Source: Octopus vulgaris
Lineage: Eukaryota
Direction of reading: 5' to 3'
DNA length: 64,000 nt
Assembly: GCA_951406725.2 (NCBI GenBank)
Contig: OX597837.1
Coordinates: 5,828,001-5,892,000, forward strand
In this document: one piece after another, positions 3,755 through 63,639 of the stretch
How the letters are laid out: the number at the start of each line of letters is the position of its first letter
How positions within the stretch are numbered: the stretch's first letter is position 1
Made by a program: the position numbers and the translations under genes
Notes under the pieces: model-generated
Told to the model about the DNA's origin: nothing
Seen by the model: only the letters and a program-made list of their open reading frames with translations
Database searches by the model: none

Positions 3755-3988
3755 CACAAGGACTTTGAACACACAAGAGTAACCAAGATAGACAGAGACA
3801 GGCAGAGACAAGGAAAATGCCACTTGTATTTGAACACTACACAAATATTCTTTAAAAAAATCTTTTCTTTTAATTTTTCCAAATTTAATTATTTAATTGT
3901 TACAGTTGAGAAAGTCTCAATGACTGAAACCGGTATACTGAAATGTTTTTTTATAAAATTATTTTAGTATTTTCTATCTTGACTTTTT

Positions 3989-3992
<4 letters not shown>
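3755..3992 (+). mobile_element. Diverged F3 copy inserted in the internal (TA)n of a SINE
   Basis: Aligns by eye with 36060-36283 (gaacacacaag, aatgccactt, tgaacactac, aaatttaattatttaat, gaaaccggta). Confidence 0.8.
3899..3944 (+). ncRNA. Minimal hammerhead ribozyme with U3:A8 variant core (F3)
   Basis: gttacag-TTGAGAA-agtc tcaat gact-GAAAC-cg-GTA-(ta)-ctgaaat; stem II covaries with the 36203 copy; 2-nt insertion after the cleavage site. Confidence 0.68.
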
Positions 3993-4036
<44 letters not shown>

Positions 4037-16974: not shown

Positions 16975-17006
<32 letters not shown>

Positions 17007-17007
17007 C

Positions 17008-18398
17008 AATTAGATATCGAAGACTACTACGCCTCCATATCGGAGAGCTTGCTGATCGACGCGATTAACTTCGCTAGGAAGTCCTCCACCATCACCGAGG
17101 CCGAGCAAGATGTGATCCTCCACGCACGTAAGACTTTTCTTTTCCACGACGGATCCCACTGGATCAAAAAAAAATCTGTGACCCCCTTCGACGTCAGCAT
17201 GGGTGCTAGCGACTCGGCTGAAATAAGTGACCTTGTGGGCCTTTTCATCCTCCATAGGCTGAAGACCCTATTCACAGGCCTCTCCGGTGGTCTTTACCGC
17301 GATGATGGCCTTTTTGCCCTCCGCAAAATAAACCCCAGGACCACGGATGGGTTCCGGAAAAATCTTTACACTTTTTTTAAAAACTTAGGCCTTAGGATTA
17401 CCTTAGAATCCAACTTAACCAAAGCTAACTTCCTTGACGTTACCCTCGACTTAAAAACCTCACTTTATTACCCGTACCACAAACCAAATGAAGCCCTTAG
17501 ATATATAGACATTAATTCCAACCACCCCAAAAATATATTAGACAACCTAGTAAAAAGTGTCTCAATTAGAATATCTAGCCTGTCCGCTACTGAAGATATC
17601 TTTAATGCCGCAGCCCCCTATTACAACGAGGCCCTGGCCCGCAGTGGCTTTAAATATAAGATCACCTATACTAGTATAGCCCCACGCCAACCCAGGAAAA
17701 ATAGGCGAAGACACATTAGCTGGTACAACCCCCACTTCAACCGTGAGGTCGCTACACCTGTAGCTAAAATCTTCTTCACTCTCCTACAGAAACACTTCCC
17801 CACCCAACATAAGTACTATACTATCCTAAATAAGAACACCATTAGACTCTCCTACTCTACCACGCCCAATCTAGCCAGGAACCTAGCCAACAACAACGTG
17901 AAAAAACTTAATATATCTACTTTTTCCGAGGCCCATCCAACATCCGATAGCAATTGCAACTGCCCTGATAAAACCACTTGCCCCCTCAACAACAACTGCC
18001 TACAGAGGGACCTCGTCTATACATGCGAGGTACGATCAGGCTTCCGATGATAAAGAAAATCGTACATCGGAATGACGTCAAACAGCTTTAAGACCTGCTG
18101 GTATGCCCACACACACTCGTTCCGGCGACCTGATAAATCCAACCAAACTACCCTCGCCGCCCACATCTGGTACCTTAAAAGGAACTCCATCCCCTTCAAG
18201 ATCAAGTGGAGACTACTACAAAAGGCGCGTTCGTACACAGGAGGCCATACCTGCTGTGACCTTTGCATTTCCGAGAGCCTAGAGATCTTGTTCGCCAAAG
18301 GCCATCTCCTCAACAAGATCTCAGAACACTCCCCAAATTGCATGCATAAAATTTATGCAAACTACAAGAACTATAGACCCACCCGGCAACCCGATTGA
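17008..18398 (+). mobile_element. 5'-truncated Penelope-like retroelement ORF (RT + CxCx5C linker + C-terminal GIY-YIG endonuclease), interrupted by two adjacent stop codons; best fit Hydra-type PLE
   Basis: RT motifs: LDIEDYYASI, FDVSMGASDSAEISDLVG, GLYRDDGL, NFLDVTLDL, and thumb YHKPNE..YIDINSNHP. Linker CNCPDKTTC. GIY-YIG as LVY...YIG (TAC ATC GGA at 18063-18071, same frame as ORF 16890-18050 and ORF 18072-18398, after TGA TAA at 18048-18053). C-terminal CDLCISE...LLNK..E....CMH. Starts abruptly at RT motif A directly after a (TA)n tract. Clade assignment is from recalled motif features, not a tree. Confidence 0.92.
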
Positions 18399-18627
18399 CG
18401 ACACCCCACCCACAAAACCCCCCAAACCCCACCGTTCCCCCAGCACCCCCGATTAACTTTCCTCCTAAGAATATTCACATATTGTATATGTACACTTGTA
18501 TATATGTATTGTATATATGTATAGAAATGAATGGGTGTTAGTAGGAATATACGCACGTATGTGAGTGCGTGTATATGTATGTGTATGTGTATGTACATGT
18601 GTATGTGTATGTGTGTGGTTTTTTATA

Positions 18628-25196: not shown

Positions 25197-25260
<64 letters not shown>

Positions 25261-25261
25261 A

Positions 25262-25835
25262 ATATATTTTCAACAATATAAAGGAATGGCCCTGGTAGGT
25301 GAAAAAAATTTTCTATTGAATTTTTTGCGACCCTTATATTGATTAATTAATGATTTTTTGACTAATTCTGAAATTAAATCAGCAGTTTATATTTGCTGCT
25401 GACAAGCTAGCTCGATTACGGTAGATTTTGAAAAGTTAGAGTATATATTCCCGAGGCATCGCTGAGGCTGCCTCGAATATTTATTCCTCCTCGCTTCCTT
25501 GCCGATGAGACGAGCCAGTGGTAGATTGACTGGATTAAATTTAATTTAATTTAATTAGGCTGGTTTGCCATAAAGTACGTCGAAACAATGCATTGTCCAA
25601 GGATGATTAAGGTAAATGTTTTTGATTTTCCTTTGATTTCTGAATTACTACTATTTAGCGGTTTGAGTATGGCTGCTCTTTCTGGTGAGACGAATGGCCT
25701 ACCAGGGACATTCCTTTATATTGTTGAAATTATATATATATATAGTCTGTGACTATTTTCTCTTTCTCACTGGACCGCTGGTGGCGAAAATAATTTCTAT
25801 TGGATTTTTTGCTACCCTTATATTGATTAATTAAT
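25262..25835 (+). mobile_element. HHR-bearing non-coding element F2 (~485-nt unit plus ~50-nt terminal direct repeat and a short inverted 5' segment)
   Basis: 25300-25350 is repeated at ~25785-25835. ttcaacaatataaaggaatggccctggtagg (~25269-25299) is the near reverse complement of ~25699-25729. Homologous in blocks to 37625-38157. Flanked by (TA)n. Confidence 0.8.
25496..25603 (+). ncRNA. Type-I hammerhead ribozyme with extended stem II (F2, CCGAUGA core)
   Basis: tccttg-CCGATGA-gacg...(long hairpin)...cgtc-GAAAC-aatgcatt-GTC-caagga; palindromic stem III ACAATGCATTGT. Confidence 0.8.
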
Positions 25836-25847
25836 ATATATATAAAA

Positions 25848-28107: not shown

Positions 28108-28651
28108 GTATTTCAAAATAGAAACTTACCCTTTAGTAGGCAATTTTTACATGCAAGATATAGCAGCCAACACGGCCAAAAACCACAATTTTATAGCAAA
28201 TTTCGAAGTAAATGAAAAATAAAAAAAACTTGTTATATACCGGTTATACGATGGTTTCGAATTTATTTTACAAATAATATCGCTTGCCATCTTTTAATGG
28301 ATAATTTAGCAAGACCATATTATCTACCAGGCGAATTCTCGTCAGTAACCGGCCTAAACAACTAACTTATAATTCAGAGACAAGATAACATGTGTCCCAT
28401 CATTATATGCTATAATTATATATATATACACACATATGTAAACATAGCCACATTTAAAGAGCTCTTCTTGTCACATTCTGTGTCTCGCTGAATCTTCCAG
28501 AAAACTACGTTAAGAGTGCGCGTGTCTGTGGAGTGCTCAGCCAAGTGTGCGTTAATTTCATGAGAACTGGAACCAATCATCCGTTCTTGCTATCAACACA
28601 GGTATCCAGAATCTGTATAGAAAGATCTCATCTATCAGTCTTTGATATTCT

Positions 28652-34927: not shown

Positions 34928-35424
34928 AGGCGGTGAGTTGGCAGAAACGTTAGCACGCCGGGCGAAATGCTTATCGGTATTACCTCTGCCCTTATATTCT
35001 GAGATCAAATTCCACCAAGGTCAACTTTGCTTTTCATCATTTCGGGGTCGATAAATTAAGTACCAGTTACGCACTGGGGTCGATATAATTGACTTAATCC
35101 GTTTGTCTGTCCTTGTTTGTTCCGTTTATGTTTAGCCCCTTGTGGGCAATAAAGAAGTCAGAAACGTGAGCACGCCGGACGAAATGCTTAGCGGCATTTC
35201 GTCTGCCGTTACGTTCTGAGTTCAAATTTCACCAAGGTCAACTTTGCCTCTCATCCTTTCGGGGTCGATTAAATAAGTACCAGTTACGCACTTAGATCGA
35301 TACAATCGACTTAATCCGTTTGTTTGTCCTTGTTTGTCCTTTCTGTGTTAAAGAAATAGGTTTTTCGTCTGCCGCTACGTTCTGAGTTCAAATTCCTCCG
35401 AGGTCGACTTTGCCTATCATCCTT
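34928..35424 (+). mobile_element. SINE type B, compound/tandem copies
   Basis: ggcggtgagttggcagaaacgttagcacgccg head; repeated ttctgagttcaaattcc..ggtc(a/g)actttgcc bodies. Confidence 0.85.
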
Positions 35425-35569
35425 CGCTCGTTTTGAGAAAATTTGGTTTAAATGTTTGACAACTCACCACCGTCCATTGGACGGGGGGCGTTTTGCTCGT
35501 GTATATATATATATATATATGAAAAAACAAGTAAAAAATAGAAAATGCTAAAATAATTTTATAGTGAAC

Positions 35570-35615
35570 ATTTCAGTACCGGTTTCGGTCATTTTGAGAC
35601 CTTTTCAACTGTAAC
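35570..35615 (-). ncRNA. Minimal hammerhead ribozyme with U3:A8 variant core (F3), mirror copy
   Basis: Reverse complement of 36189-36234. Confidence 0.72.
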
Positions 35616-36188
35616 GATTAAATAATTAAATTTAGAAAAATTTGAAGAAAAGTTTTTTTAAAAGAATATTTCTATAGTAGTGTTCAGATTTAAGTGGCAT
35701 TCTGCCTTTCTCTGACTCCCTTGTTTGCACTTGTGTGTTCGAGGTAGTTGTGAGTTCTTGGTAGGGTAGTAGAGGGAAGGCTGGTGAGGAAAGGGGGTGG
35801 GAGAATCTGGGAGTGCCCTGATGGTCGTATTTTGAATGGTCAGTGGCGGCTGGCAGTCTCAGTTCAATTCAGGAGAATATTTATATTGACAGGCTAATTC
35901 TATAAACAAGCCTGTCAATATAAATATTCTCCTGAATTGAACTGAGACTGCCAGCCGCCACTGACCATTCATAATACGACCATCAGGGCACTCCCAGATT
36001 CTCCCACCCCCTTTCCTCACCAGCCTTCCCTCTACTACCCTACCAAGAACTCACAACTACCTCGAACACACAAGTGCAAACAAGGGAGTCAGAGAAAGGC
36101 AGAATGCCACTTAAATCTGAACACTACTATAGAAATATTCTTTTAAAAAAACTTTTCTTCTAATTTTTCTAAATTTAATTATTTAATC

Positions 36189-36234
36189 GTTACAGTTGAA
36201 AAGGTCTCAAAATGACCGAAACCGGTACTGAAAT
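36189..36234 (+). ncRNA. Minimal hammerhead ribozyme with U3:A8 variant core (F3)
   Basis: gttacag-TTGAAAA-ggtc tcaaaat gacc-GAAAC-cg-GTA-ctgaaat; palindrome ACCGGT in place of stem III. Confidence 0.72.
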
Positions 36235-36317
36235 GTTCACTATAAAATTATTTTAGCATTTTCTATTTTTTACTTGTTTTTTCATATATATCAACTCGTG
36301 TGTTCCTTTTCACCCTT

Positions 36318-36354
<37 letters not shown>

Positions 36355-36475
36355 TATTTGAGAAAATGAGTCCAGATGGCACTTTTGTTTTAATGGTAGC
36401 CATCTCTACTCATTTTTCCAAATATATTATACGGTACCCCAAATCTTTTATAATTCTAATATATATATATGTATG

Positions 36476-36523
<48 letters not shown>

Positions 36524-36535
36524 ATTATGTATATG

Positions 36536-36605
<70 letters not shown>

Positions 36606-36725
36606 AATCAAGGAACGGCCATAATAGGCCATTCACCCACTAGAAATAACAGCCAAAGCTTCAAACCGCAAAACAACATTAATTCCGCAAACCAGGAGAA
36701 AATTAAAAAAACATTTACCCTGCAA

Positions 36726-36830
36726 TTTCTTATACGATGCACCGTTTCATCTATTGTTTAATGGTAAACTAACCTGATTAAATTAAATCAAGCCAATCTT
36801 CCATAGGCCGATAGATTCGTCAGTAAGAAA
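36726..36830 (-). ncRNA. Type-I hammerhead ribozyme with extended stem II (F2)
   Basis: Reverse complement of 37821-37925. Confidence 0.85.
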
Positions 36831-37210
36831 CAGCCAGATCGGAGCAGATATTTTCACGAGGCACTTCAATCCCTGCCTCGGCAATATCTGACCTAAAATT
36901 TTCAAATCATCGCACTCGCGCCAAATTTATCGGCAGCAAATATAAGCCGCCGATTCCATTACGGAATTAACCAGAAAATTCATAATTAATCAATATAGGG
37001 TGGCAAAAGATTTTCGTAGAATTTTTTTGCCACCAGCGGCCTAGTGGGAAAAATAAAATAGTCATAGACCATTTATAAGTTCAACATCACAATCAAGGAA
37101 CGGCCATAATAGGCCATTCACCCACTAGAAATAACAGCCAAAGCTTCAAACCGCAAAACAACATTAATTCCGCAAACCAGGAGAAAATTAAAAAAACATT
37201 TACCCTGCAA

Positions 37211-37315
37211 TTTCTTATACGATGCACCGTTTCATCTATTGTTTAATGGTAAACTAACCTGATTAAATTAAATCAAGCCAATCTTCCATAGGCCGATAGA
37301 TTCGTCAGTAAGAAA
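37211..37315 (-). ncRNA. Type-I hammerhead ribozyme with extended stem II (F2)
   Basis: Reverse complement of 37821-37925; 485 nt from the previous copy. Confidence 0.85.
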
Positions 37316-37820
37316 CAGCCAGATCGGAGGAGATATTTTCACGAGGCACTTCAATCCCTGCCTCGGCAATATCTGACCTAAAATTTTCAAATCGTCGCAC
37401 TCGCGCCAAATTTATCGGCAGCAAATATAAGCCGCCGATTCCATTACGGAATTAACCAGAAAATTCATAATTAATCAATATAGGGTGGCAAAAAATTTTC
37501 GTAGAATTTTTTTGCCACCAACGGCCTAGTGGGAAAAAATTAAATAGTCATAGACCATTTATAAGTTCAACATCACAATCAAGGAACGGCCATAATAGGC
37601 CATTCACCCACTAGAAATAACTAGAAAATCTACGAAAATATTTTTTTGCCACCCTATATTGATTAATTATGAATTTTCTGGTTAATTCCGTAATGGAATC
37701 GGCGGCTTATATTTGCTGCCGATAAATTTGGCGCGAGTGCGATGATTTGAAAATTTCAGGTCAGATATTTCCGAGGCAGGGATTGAAGTGCCTCGTGAAA
37801 ATATCTCTCCGATCTGGCTG

Positions 37821-37925
37821 TTTCTTACTGACGAATCTATCGGCCTATGGAAGATTGGCTTGATTTAATTTAATCAGGTTAGTTTACCATTAAACAATAG
37901 ATGAAACGGTGCATCGTATAAGAAA
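37821..37925 (+). ncRNA. Type-I hammerhead ribozyme with extended stem II (F2)
   Basis: tttctta-CTGACGA-atctat...(G.U-rich hairpin)...atagat-GAAAC-ggtgcatc-GTA-taagaaa; 7-bp stem I, canonical core. Confidence 0.88.
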
Positions 37926-38153
37926 TTGCAGGGTAAATGTTTTTTTAATTTTCTCCTGGTTTGCGGAATTAATGTTGTTTTGCGGTTTGAAGCTTTGGCT
38001 GTTATTTCTAGTGGGTGAATGGCCTATTATGGCCGTTCCTTGATTGTGATGTTGAACTTATAAATGGTCTATGACTATTTAATTTTTTCCCACTAGGCCG
38101 CTGGTGGCAAAAAATTCTACCAAAATTTTTTGCCACCCTATATTGATTAATTA

Positions 38154-38211
<58 letters not shown>

Positions 38212-41304: not shown

Positions 41305-41355
41305 AACGACCTTAATCGATTTTCGAACCTTATTTAGGTTCTCATCAGAGGCGTC
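41305..41355 (-). ncRNA. Minimal type-I hammerhead ribozyme (F5, single copy)
   Basis: gacgccu-CUGAUGA-gaaccu aaaua agguuc-GAAA-aucgau-UA-aggucguu; 6-bp stem II, palindrome AAUCGAUU; adjacent to (TA)n. Confidence 0.85.
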
Positions 41356-41370
41356 TACAGCATTCTGATA

Positions 41371-41455
<85 letters not shown>

Positions 41456-59809: not shown

Positions 59810-60826
59810 ATGAATAGATAAAAAAATTTGTGTTGTTTGTGTATATGAGTTCCGTCGTGAAACCACTGCATCCCAGAGAGCTCGAAACATCAATGAGGTA
59901 TTTGGTGAAGATGTGGCGAATAAGAGCACTGTAAGTCGAATTTTTGAGGAGTTCCCGTCTGGTGACTTTACTCTTGAAAATCATCCCCGTCGTAGACCTG
60001 AGACCAAGGTAGATAATGACGAACTGGAAACTATAGTGGAAGTGGATAAATCTCAAACTAAGCATGAGTTAGCAGCAGGGTTTGATGTTTCGATTCCCAC
60101 TGTGTTAGACCATCTGAAACAAATCGGCAAGGTAAAGAAGCTGGGAAAGTGGATACTACTCGAAGCGAACGAGCATTAAATGACACGTAGTCTTGAAGCT
60201 TGCTGTTTTTGCTGTAACAGCATAAAAGCGAACCATGTTTGCATCGTATTGTCACGTGTGAGGAAAATTGGATTCTTTTCAACAATAGCAAGCATTCTTC
60301 GCGGTGGTTGGGTAGAGCCGAAGTGCCAAAATACCATCCAAACGAATATTCATCAAAATATGGTAATGCTGTTTATTTGGTGGACCAGAACTGGAGTTAT
60401 CCACTAGAGCTTCAAGAGACCTGGTAAGGCAATTACAGCAGATGTATACATCAACCAATTGGATGAAATGATGAATGCACTTGCAATTAAACAACCGAGA
60501 TTGGTCAATAGAGACAGGCCAATTCTCTTGCAAGACAATATTCGACCACATGTAGCACTAAAAAGGCCACTCATGTTACAGGAACTGAACTTAGAAGTAC
60601 CCTATTATCCATCATATTCACCAGACCTTGCACCAACTGACTATCATGTTTTCCAAGCATTACACAACTCGTTGTAAGGAAAATACTTCAAATCTGAAGG
60701 AGATGTAAAAACCGTCTTCCGTGATTTCAACACCGCTTGCACTTCAGAATTTTTCACTGTAGTCATAAATAAGCAACCGATAAATGGCAAAATTGTGTTG
60801 ATGATTTCGGTTCATACTTTGATTAA
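59810..60826 (+). pseudogene. Decayed mariner (Tc1/mariner) transposase
   Basis: Fragments in several frames: VLDHLKQIGKVKKLGKW, RIVTCEENW (DEKW-like), PILLQDNIRPH (HDNARPH-like), YSPDLAPTDYHVF; multiple stops and frameshifts. Confidence 0.9.
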
Positions 60827-62893: not shown

Positions 62894-63294
62894 TGTATAT
62901 TATGTATATATATACATATATATATGTGGAGGCACAATGACCCAGTGGTTAGGGCAGCTGACTCGCGGTCGTAAAAGCTGATCACGCACCGCCGAGGCAT
63001 ATAGTGATTACAGACGTATAATTGTCATGCTATTTAGGGACCGCAAATCCAATTAGCCCTCCACAGGGGCCAGCTTAAATGCCTGCACGGACTGCGGTTT
63101 TTTAGCAAGTATGTGTTTACATATTAGCGACATGGACGGTATTAATACTTATCGCACTCATTATACGTGACCTCACGTGGATATATTGTTAGATCGACGA
63201 ATAATGTGGTATTTGCCTTGGAATGCTCTCTCTCCTATGTTTGCACACTGCCTAAGAGCACAGACATATATGGTAAAAGACAATAAGATGTAGG

Positions 63295-63639
63295 AACAAC
63301 AGACCTGACATAACGATTTGGGACCGAGAAGAGAAACTGTGCGCAGTTGTAGAAATTAGCTGCCCAGCGGATGTTAACATAAAGCTGAAGATCTCTCAAA
63401 CAGAGAACACCGATGCTGAACTATTGAGAAATCTACAGTTACTCTATCCAGATTATAAGTTCAGGTTTGTACTTGTAATTATTAAGGCCCTGGGATATGT
63501 AGCACACTATCTAAATACCGATCTTGAGAAATTAGGCTTCTCAAAACCAGAAAGGCGAAAGCTAATTCGAAGACTACAGATTCGACTCCTCATTGGAACT
63601 GTTAAAATATGTAAAAGTTTACAGACAGTTATCGTTTAA
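63295..63639 (+). mobile_element. 3' fragment of a non-LTR retrotransposon with restriction-like endonuclease (R4/Dong-like)
   Basis: In-frame NNRPDITIWDREEKLCAVVEISCPAD...LRNLQLLYPDY..VIIKALG..GTVKICK; RPD...VEI is the REL PD-(D/E)xK signature. Confidence 0.75.

Follow-up and report, generated by a model that had tools for sequence, protein, structure and literature searches.

The locus

The element described here lies in a window of 64,000 nucleotides from Octopus vulgaris (assembly GCA_951406725.2, contig OX597837.1, positions 5,828,001 to 5,892,000 of the forward strand), and all coordinates refer to this window. It spans 36601-38158, is bracketed by two (TA)n runs and consists of two arms joined head to head (5' to 5') at 37621/37622, with their 3' ends facing the (TA)n runs. 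In the numbering used, +1 is the first base past the predicted cut (37217, minus strand), and "sense" denotes the ribozyme strand. The following features were identified:

36460-36600, no strand, left target, a (TA)n-rich microsatellite; AT is common to it and the left arm's 3' end
36601-37085, minus strand, unit 1, 485 nt; holds the left arm's 3' end, +132 from the cleavage site
36726-36830, minus strand, type I hammerhead 1; core start 36823, predicted cut after 36733
36733-37217, minus strand, predicted 485-nt monomer between two predicted cleavage sites, 37.9% GC
37086-37571, minus strand, unit 2, 486 nt
37211-37315, minus strand, type I hammerhead 2; core start 37308, predicted cut after 37218
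37572-37621, minus strand, partial unit of 50 nt (+83 to +132) that forms the left arm's 5' end and its terminal redundancy
37615-37650, no strand, head-to-head junction; the right arm begins within the +184 to +219 hairpin, with a few bases altered
37622-38158, plus strand, right arm, inverted; begins at about +190/+194 and ends at +240 one lap later
37821-37925, plus strand, type I hammerhead 3; core 37828-37834, GUA 37916-37918
38157-38208, no strand, right target, a (TA)n run in the sequence

The left arm, on the minus strand, starts at +83, runs through two full laps of the unit and ends at +132 (1020 aligned bases; two units plus 50 nt). The right arm, on the plus strand, starts at about +190/+194 and runs through one lap to +240 (532 aligned bases; one unit plus 47-50 nt). 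Positions 36601-37135 and 37086-37621 are 98.9% identical over 536 columns, and the inverted arm (37625-38158) shares 97.6-98.1% identity with the units of the left arm. The first ~50 nt of the inverted arm recur at its end with 90% identity, and the left arm likewise ends in a 50-nt terminal redundancy. The repeat is the 485-nt unit as a whole. The preliminary description had reported near-identical head-to-tail units with one hammerhead each and an inverted copy with a terminal redundancy of ~50 nt, and had taken the high identity as a sign of recent activity. Both structural observations were borne out, with the two minus-strand cores, at 36823 and 37308, lying 485 nt apart. A recent origin is supported as well, with the three units differing from each other in only 6, 8 and 7 alignment columns.

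The predicted hammerhead ribozyme

The hammerhead of each full unit is of type I and is composed of a 7-bp stem I (UUUCUUA/UAAGAAA), the core CUGACGA, helix II, GAAAC, a short stem III and GUA, so that all the motifs previously claimed, including the GUA at 37916-37918, were recovered. Helix II comprises 68 nt, with 6 bp, an internal loop and a long G-U-rich hairpin, and is predicted with a probability of 0.96. The pair 10.1-11.1 is A-U at a position where G-C is usual. A relaxed descriptor identified six motifs in the window, three of which belong to the 485-nt unit, while 100 block shuffles yielded 0.03 on average and never more than 1; the motif count is far beyond chance within the window. 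A search with the Rfam models revealed no hammerhead at the gathering score or at E-values up to 10, which is probably explained by the long helix II. The best Rfam match by E-value was a microRNA model located on the inversion junction, which was below the gathering score and was rejected.

In the monomer, the active hammerhead fold is less stable than the predicted minimum by 2.0-3.8 kcal/mol, and the pairing probability of stem III is at most 0.04. When the unit is folded as a circle, GAAAC is paired with the 5' strand of stem I. Stem III, which is self-complementary, is predicted to form a 12-bp dimer of -17.5 kcal/mol. The formation of dimers is a known route for hammerheads with a stem III of this kind (PMC4209133). 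One contig of the sequencing run X19 (see below) carries the stem III loop UAUA in place of UGCA, which is still palindromic.

As a separate observation, the sequence GGUAAAUG was found at +13 to +20 of the monomer (37198-37205, minus strand), just past the cut, and is kept in a copy of 70% identity in the window. It resembles a splice donor, and the pLTRs of PLEs can hold an intron. No skip matching it was present among the joints in the runs X1, X2, X13 and X19.

Coding capacity and folding of the unit

The longest stop-to-stop frames round the unit have 49 codons in the sense and 55 in the antisense direction, in agreement with the earlier statement that a convincing open reading frame is lacking. 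With 485 nt and a GC content of 37.9%, the unit is within the bounds of retrozymes (GC under 45-50%, a few hundred bases). The linear fold is better than that of shuffled sequences (z -5.5, none of 100 shuffles as good), as is the circular fold of -143 kcal/mol (z -4.4, none of 40). The unit had been called highly structured, and this description holds, though the antisense strand gave a z of -8.1, so that the strength of the fold does not single out the ribozyme strand. Conservation of structure over the whole unit was not significant, with 21 of 37 changed pairs kept compared to 17.3 +/- 2.6 expected (p 0.11, sense strand). The same covariation test gave p-values of 0.40 for the antisense strand and 0.33 outside the ribozyme.

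Relatives in the window

Two further elements in the window were assigned as relatives of the 485-nt unit:

25252-25838, plus strand, diverged relative with 70% identity and a period of 484; its hammerhead has the core CCGAUGA, at 25502
28110-28420, minus strand, probable distant relative; its type I hammerhead, at 28345, has a long helix II

The copy at 25252-25838 sits in (TA)n and is composed of a short inverted piece, from +105 to about +135, and an arm of 1.1 units, from about +184 to +236/240. It thus shows the layout of the element at 36601-38158, a partial tandem with an inverted piece adjacent at its 5' end. Its hammerhead core is altered to CCGAUGA, and its stems are conserved through change, stem I having undergone two double changes and stem III one. 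The unit length is kept at 484-486 nt across a divergence of 30%. For the element at 28110-28420, no blastn match to the 485-nt unit was obtained and the pairwise alignment is weak; its 3' end lies about 140 nt past the cut and is followed by (TA)n. The sequence of helix II differs among all three elements (36601, 25252 and 28345), yet in each of them it pairs.

Other repeats were noted in the window. At 41310-41372 on the minus strand, next to (TA)n, lies a short hammerhead, again of type I but in the minimal form of PLEs, with CUGAUGA and a 6-bp helix II; it is a fourth, unrelated family. At 35513-36291, a fold-back with arms of 383 nt (99% identity) lies between (TA)n runs and has an outward-facing layout as in the 485-nt element. 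It carries a hammerhead-like motif near its outer end with the core UUGAAAA, and its fold has a z of only -0.85. In such a core, U3-A8 in place of C3-G8 is a tolerated variant. A copy of this fold-back with 80% identity is present at 3755-4000, with UUGAGAA and a covarying helix II (GGUC/GACC versus AGUC/GACU). The region 34942-35424 contains short direct repeats (191 nt at a spacing of 217; 62 nt three times), which look like stacked SINE pieces.

Insertion ends and probable common source of the arms

Counterparts of the 3' end at +132 are present in the copy at 25252-25838 (about +135 to +140) and in the element at 28110-28420 (about +140). In addition, a loose end leading into (AT)n at 37086, corresponding to +132, was found in 14 contigs of run X1, among the 24 of 169 loose ends listed. 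The 3' end at +240 has its counterpart in the copy at 25252-25838 as well, at +236 to +240; it was found only in these two copies of the window and not among the 24 of 169 loose ends of X1 that were listed. Both 3' ends of the 70% identical copy are thus within about 8 nt of those in the element at 36601-38158, and the 5' end of the right arm falls into the same hairpin in both. The two 3' ends stand 108 nt apart, as judged from few copies. The insertion ends look fixed rather than permuted. The preliminary description had proposed a survey of start-point permutation; the few ends available showed no permutation but fell again at about +132 and +240. A circular template would also be compatible with fixed ends.

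The overshoot past whole laps is 47-52 nt in three arms, while the fourth arm is only 30-40 nt long. Two fixed stop sites, and not a ruler, may lie behind this regularity, four arms being too few to decide between the two. All three units carry a G at +10, which at 37208 accounts for about 0.15% of the depth in run X1 and at most 0.9% in X2, summed contig depth being a rough measure. Since this rare G is present in all units, both arms probably derive from one source in one event.

The family in public sequencing runs

Part of the unit was found in 20 of the 24 listed runs, which come from 10 studies and carry four organism labels. The data of these runs are contigs throughout, which show no strand, ends or circles. 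None of the listed runs containing the unit is labelled RNA, and X13 and X19 are considered RNA by guess only. Four of the 24 runs were mapped on one unit, with 6327 contigs from X1, 13144 from X2, 64 from X13 and 26 from X19, covering 30, 30, 29 and 29 of 30 bins, respectively. These contig counts and this coverage indicate that the unit is a highly repeated, variable family, although the counts in X1 and X2 give no copy number.

In X13, the cut site, +132 and +240 are spanned by contigs that extend 31 letters or more to either side; these contigs fit multimers, circles or DNA equally. The summed depth in X13 is lowest at the two bins of the cleavage site, apart from the empty last bin, contig depth being unable to rank the parts of the unit. 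A join from 37327 to 36843 in the same run was rejected, as it only crosses the artificial edge of the mapped stretch. The alternative letter at 37239 was present in 1 contig of X13 compared to 79 of X1 and 117 of X2; as a lead only, this could be due to selective transcription of a young subfamily or to a different individual.

Signs of further subfamilies were seen in X1, X2, X13 and X19 as a loose end implying the core CUGAAGA with a changed helix II, and a second join in X13, with a depth of 289, was counted among such signs. X19 contains a contig of 477 nt which looks like a nearly whole unit of the type at 25 kb. Pattern scans elsewhere yielded 3 metagenome loci, 0 and 37 viral loci and 1 prokaryotic locus, all 41 of which were rejected as chance matches; the longest alignment of the unit to them was 23 nt.

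Coding elements in the window

A broken, 5'-truncated PLE frame follows a (TA)n run at 16987-18398 on the plus strand. It contains reverse transcriptase motifs and a cysteine linker, with a GIY-YIG-like part beyond an in-frame stop. For this frame, 274 longer relatives were found at E < 1e-20, one of which is named GIY-YIG endonuclease, and the Atlas assigns RT clusters to it, while a comparison of the PLE frames with Pfam yielded no curated match. Towards its 3' end (18050-18480), the remnant has no match elsewhere in the window, the 485-nt unit included. Since a sequence link to the unit is thus missing, the remnant only shows that PLEs live in this genome. The search within the window revealed no coding PLE sharing the 485-nt unit, and the element itself has no ORF for a reverse transcriptase and GIY-YIG endonuclease, by which an autonomous PLE is recognised. 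Two other frames on the plus strand resemble a mariner transposase fragment (59814-60179) and a restriction-like LINE endonuclease (63277-63639).

Comparison with known retrozymes and PLEs

Metazoan non-LTR retrozymes have been described as short, low-GC tandem units with one type I hammerhead per unit and no ORF; circles were demonstrated for those of coral, mussel and axolotl, and PLEs were proposed as their mobilisers (PMC7229834). The 485-nt element very probably belongs to the non-LTR retrozymes, and as such is a further member of an already known class. This assignment, which had been suggested earlier, follows from the sequence, with two consecutive units carrying complete type I hammerheads and no ORF. 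The monomer of ~485 nt is likewise predicted from the spacing of the cleavage sites, from 37217 to 36733 on the minus strand. The element resembles the retrozymes of Cervera and de la Pena (2020) in its low-GC tandem with one type I hammerhead, the absence of an ORF, its many copies and the predicted self-paired monomer. However, the unit has 485 nt compared to RNAs of about 170-400 nt in metazoan retrozymes (PMC7229834), and helix II has 68 nt compared to about 4 bp in canonical hammerheads (PMC4209133). The inverted arm, the fixed ends and the (TA)n target found here are not described in the main text of PMC7229834. While circles were shown for the retrozymes of that study, the octopus element is known from its sequence.

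In a recent preprint, non-LTR retrozymes were derived from PLEs (Li, Clavereau and Pollet 2026, 10.64898/2026.07.22.740005). There, the link is based on pLTR homology and on the joint occurrence of retrozymes and PLEs in 35 genomes, mostly of vertebrates, whereas here it consists of an insertion scar. Frog retrozyme units were reported to resemble pLTRs, and cleavage was obtained in only one of nine frog dimers tested. The two consecutive units with complete hammerheads which serve as the working rule of Li et al. are present in the octopus element, and 485 nt lies within their range of 51-972 bp.

Insertions of PLEs show partial tandems, an adjacent inverted 5'-truncated copy, a tail of 30-40 bp and (TA)n targets, as stated by Craig et al. 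(2021). The octopus locus shares with them the partial tandem, the adjacent inverted copy, a terminal extension and the AT-rich target, while its ends are 108 nt apart instead of the 30-40 nt of the PLE tail. The protein of the anole Poseidon element PAc was shown to nick both strands of AT-rich DNA and to extend them, starting at two fixed positions inside the RNA that lie downstream of the hammerhead; ribozyme cleavage was dispensable (Frangieh et al. 2024, PMC11167929). Extension of both strands and starts downstream of the hammerhead are also suggested by the arms here. However, AT is shared by the ends and the target at the octopus locus, while PAc starts at non-homologous sites. Unlike PLEs, the octopus element has no ORF, and its arms exceed whole units by about 50 nt.

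Among the papers listed by literature searches (in one case the top 20 of 97), none dealt with a cephalopod retrozyme or with retrozyme insertion ends, although the supplements of PMC7229834 and of the preprint by Li et al. may list the family. The available parts of PMC7761336 and PMC6765202 contained no description of such an element, and the main text of the O. vulgaris repeat paper has no occurrence of the words ribozyme or retrozyme.

Proposed mechanism and alternatives

The features of the sequence suggest that the 485-nt element is probably a young non-autonomous hammerhead element, a non-LTR retrozyme, which borrows the protein of an endonuclease-bearing PLE; that a PLE is its mobiliser appears quite probable. 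In the proposed pathway, tandem units would be transcribed and then cut by their hammerheads, probably aided by stem III dimers, so that a 485-nt monomer would be freed which a host ligase can close. The PLE protein would nick both strands of the (TA)n run, with reverse transcription from +132 and +240. Both cDNAs would continue past the intact cleavage site, covering whole laps and about 50 nt more, and would be joined through their 5' ends. Extension of both strands from two internal sites, as by PAc, would account for the opposed arms and for the fixed ends. From the architecture of the insertion a PLE is the likely mobiliser, but a circular template does not follow from it. In the preliminary description, the multimer with terminal redundancy had been considered as the trace of a circular template. 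This combination proved not to be diagnostic, because ordinary PLE insertions share the layout (Craig et al. 2021) and a PLE protein uses unprocessed RNA in vitro, with starts at fixed internal sites.

For the last step, an uncut multimer or a jumping template has slightly better than even prospects, and a circle would come close to an even chance. A reading with the same element and mobiliser and without any circle, in which an uncut multimeric transcript, insertion into existing copies or template jumps gave the arrays and the ribozyme is weak or acts late, is a serious, less than even possibility. It draws on the PAc results, in which unprocessed RNA was the main substrate in vitro, hammerhead mutants left insertion unchanged, no RNA-seq reads ended at the cut site and the protein nicked its own ORF-pLTR junction (PMC11167929). 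The marginal monomeric active fold in the 485-nt unit and the single active frog dimer in nine would also speak against a circle. On the other side, linear copying would be expected to shorten arrays unless they are regenerated, yet an arm of 2.1 units exists; the arms are longer than one unit and pass an intact cut site, the unit length is constant at 484-486 nt across 30% divergence, and the units differ mostly by private changes, as one template would give. Circles in the coral, mussel and axolotl retrozymes (PMC7229834) would favour a circle here as well. Copying of a free circle by any reverse transcriptase from random start points, the model proposed in PMC7229834 and PMC4209133, would equally give two arms longer than one unit that run through an intact cleavage site; it is considered improbable, since independent copies share ends at +132 to +140 and at +236 to +240, as do the 14 X1 contigs at +132, but few copies are available and priming could be drawn to AT-rich spots.

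A different origin of the unit is unlikely, in which it is the pLTR of a coding PLE and the locus a severely 5'-truncated, pLTR-only insertion instead of an independent retrozyme. The layout of the locus is that of PLE insertions (Craig et al. 2021), frog retrozyme units resemble pLTRs (Li et al. 2026), and pLTRs bear hammerheads of type I whose helix II is often unusually large (PMC4209133). Nevertheless, two complete consecutive units are present without an ORF remnant, the unit is self-closing in both subfamilies, and its full 7-bp stem I and stem III are unlike the minimal PLE motifs described in PMC4209133. The loose ends listed (24 of 169), each of at most 30 letters, are (AT)n or variants of the unit. 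Mobilisation of the unit by a LINE through twin priming, or a later origin of inversion and tandem by DNA repair or slippage in the microsatellite, is very improbable and already disfavoured. Twin priming by LINEs yields outward-facing 3' ends, and the frame at 63277-63639 resembles a restriction-like LINE endonuclease. However, the arms have neither a poly(A) nor a simple-repeat tail, and no end lies at the cleavage site; random repair would not make the same four end points recur approximately in a copy of 70% identity.

Implications

The value of the octopus element is that of a test case and not of a new system, because the retrozyme class is already known. The return of retrozymes to the genome has been proposed and not demonstrated (PMC7229834; Li et al. 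2026; PMC7761336). The octopus family joins a unit of the retrozyme type with an inverted scar of two start sites, which was recently explained biochemically for a PLE, and its exact positions +132 and +240 are testable with purified PLE protein on linear versus circular templates. Because of the long helix II, searches of the Rfam type may miss such families.

A more tentative and rather doubtful reading is that the locus records rolling-circle, target-primed reverse transcription of one circular 485-nt ribozyme RNA by a PLE dimer. Here, both (TA)n strands would be nicked and copying from two fixed starts would give whole laps plus about 50 nt on each side, with two laps on the left and one on the right, and with zero and one in the copy at 25252-25838. 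If this were true, the 68-nt helix II common to the three elements would represent a distinct hammerhead variant, possibly the protein's handle. If it held family-wide, "whole laps plus fixed overshoot" would be direct genomic evidence for retrozyme circles as templates of PLEs.
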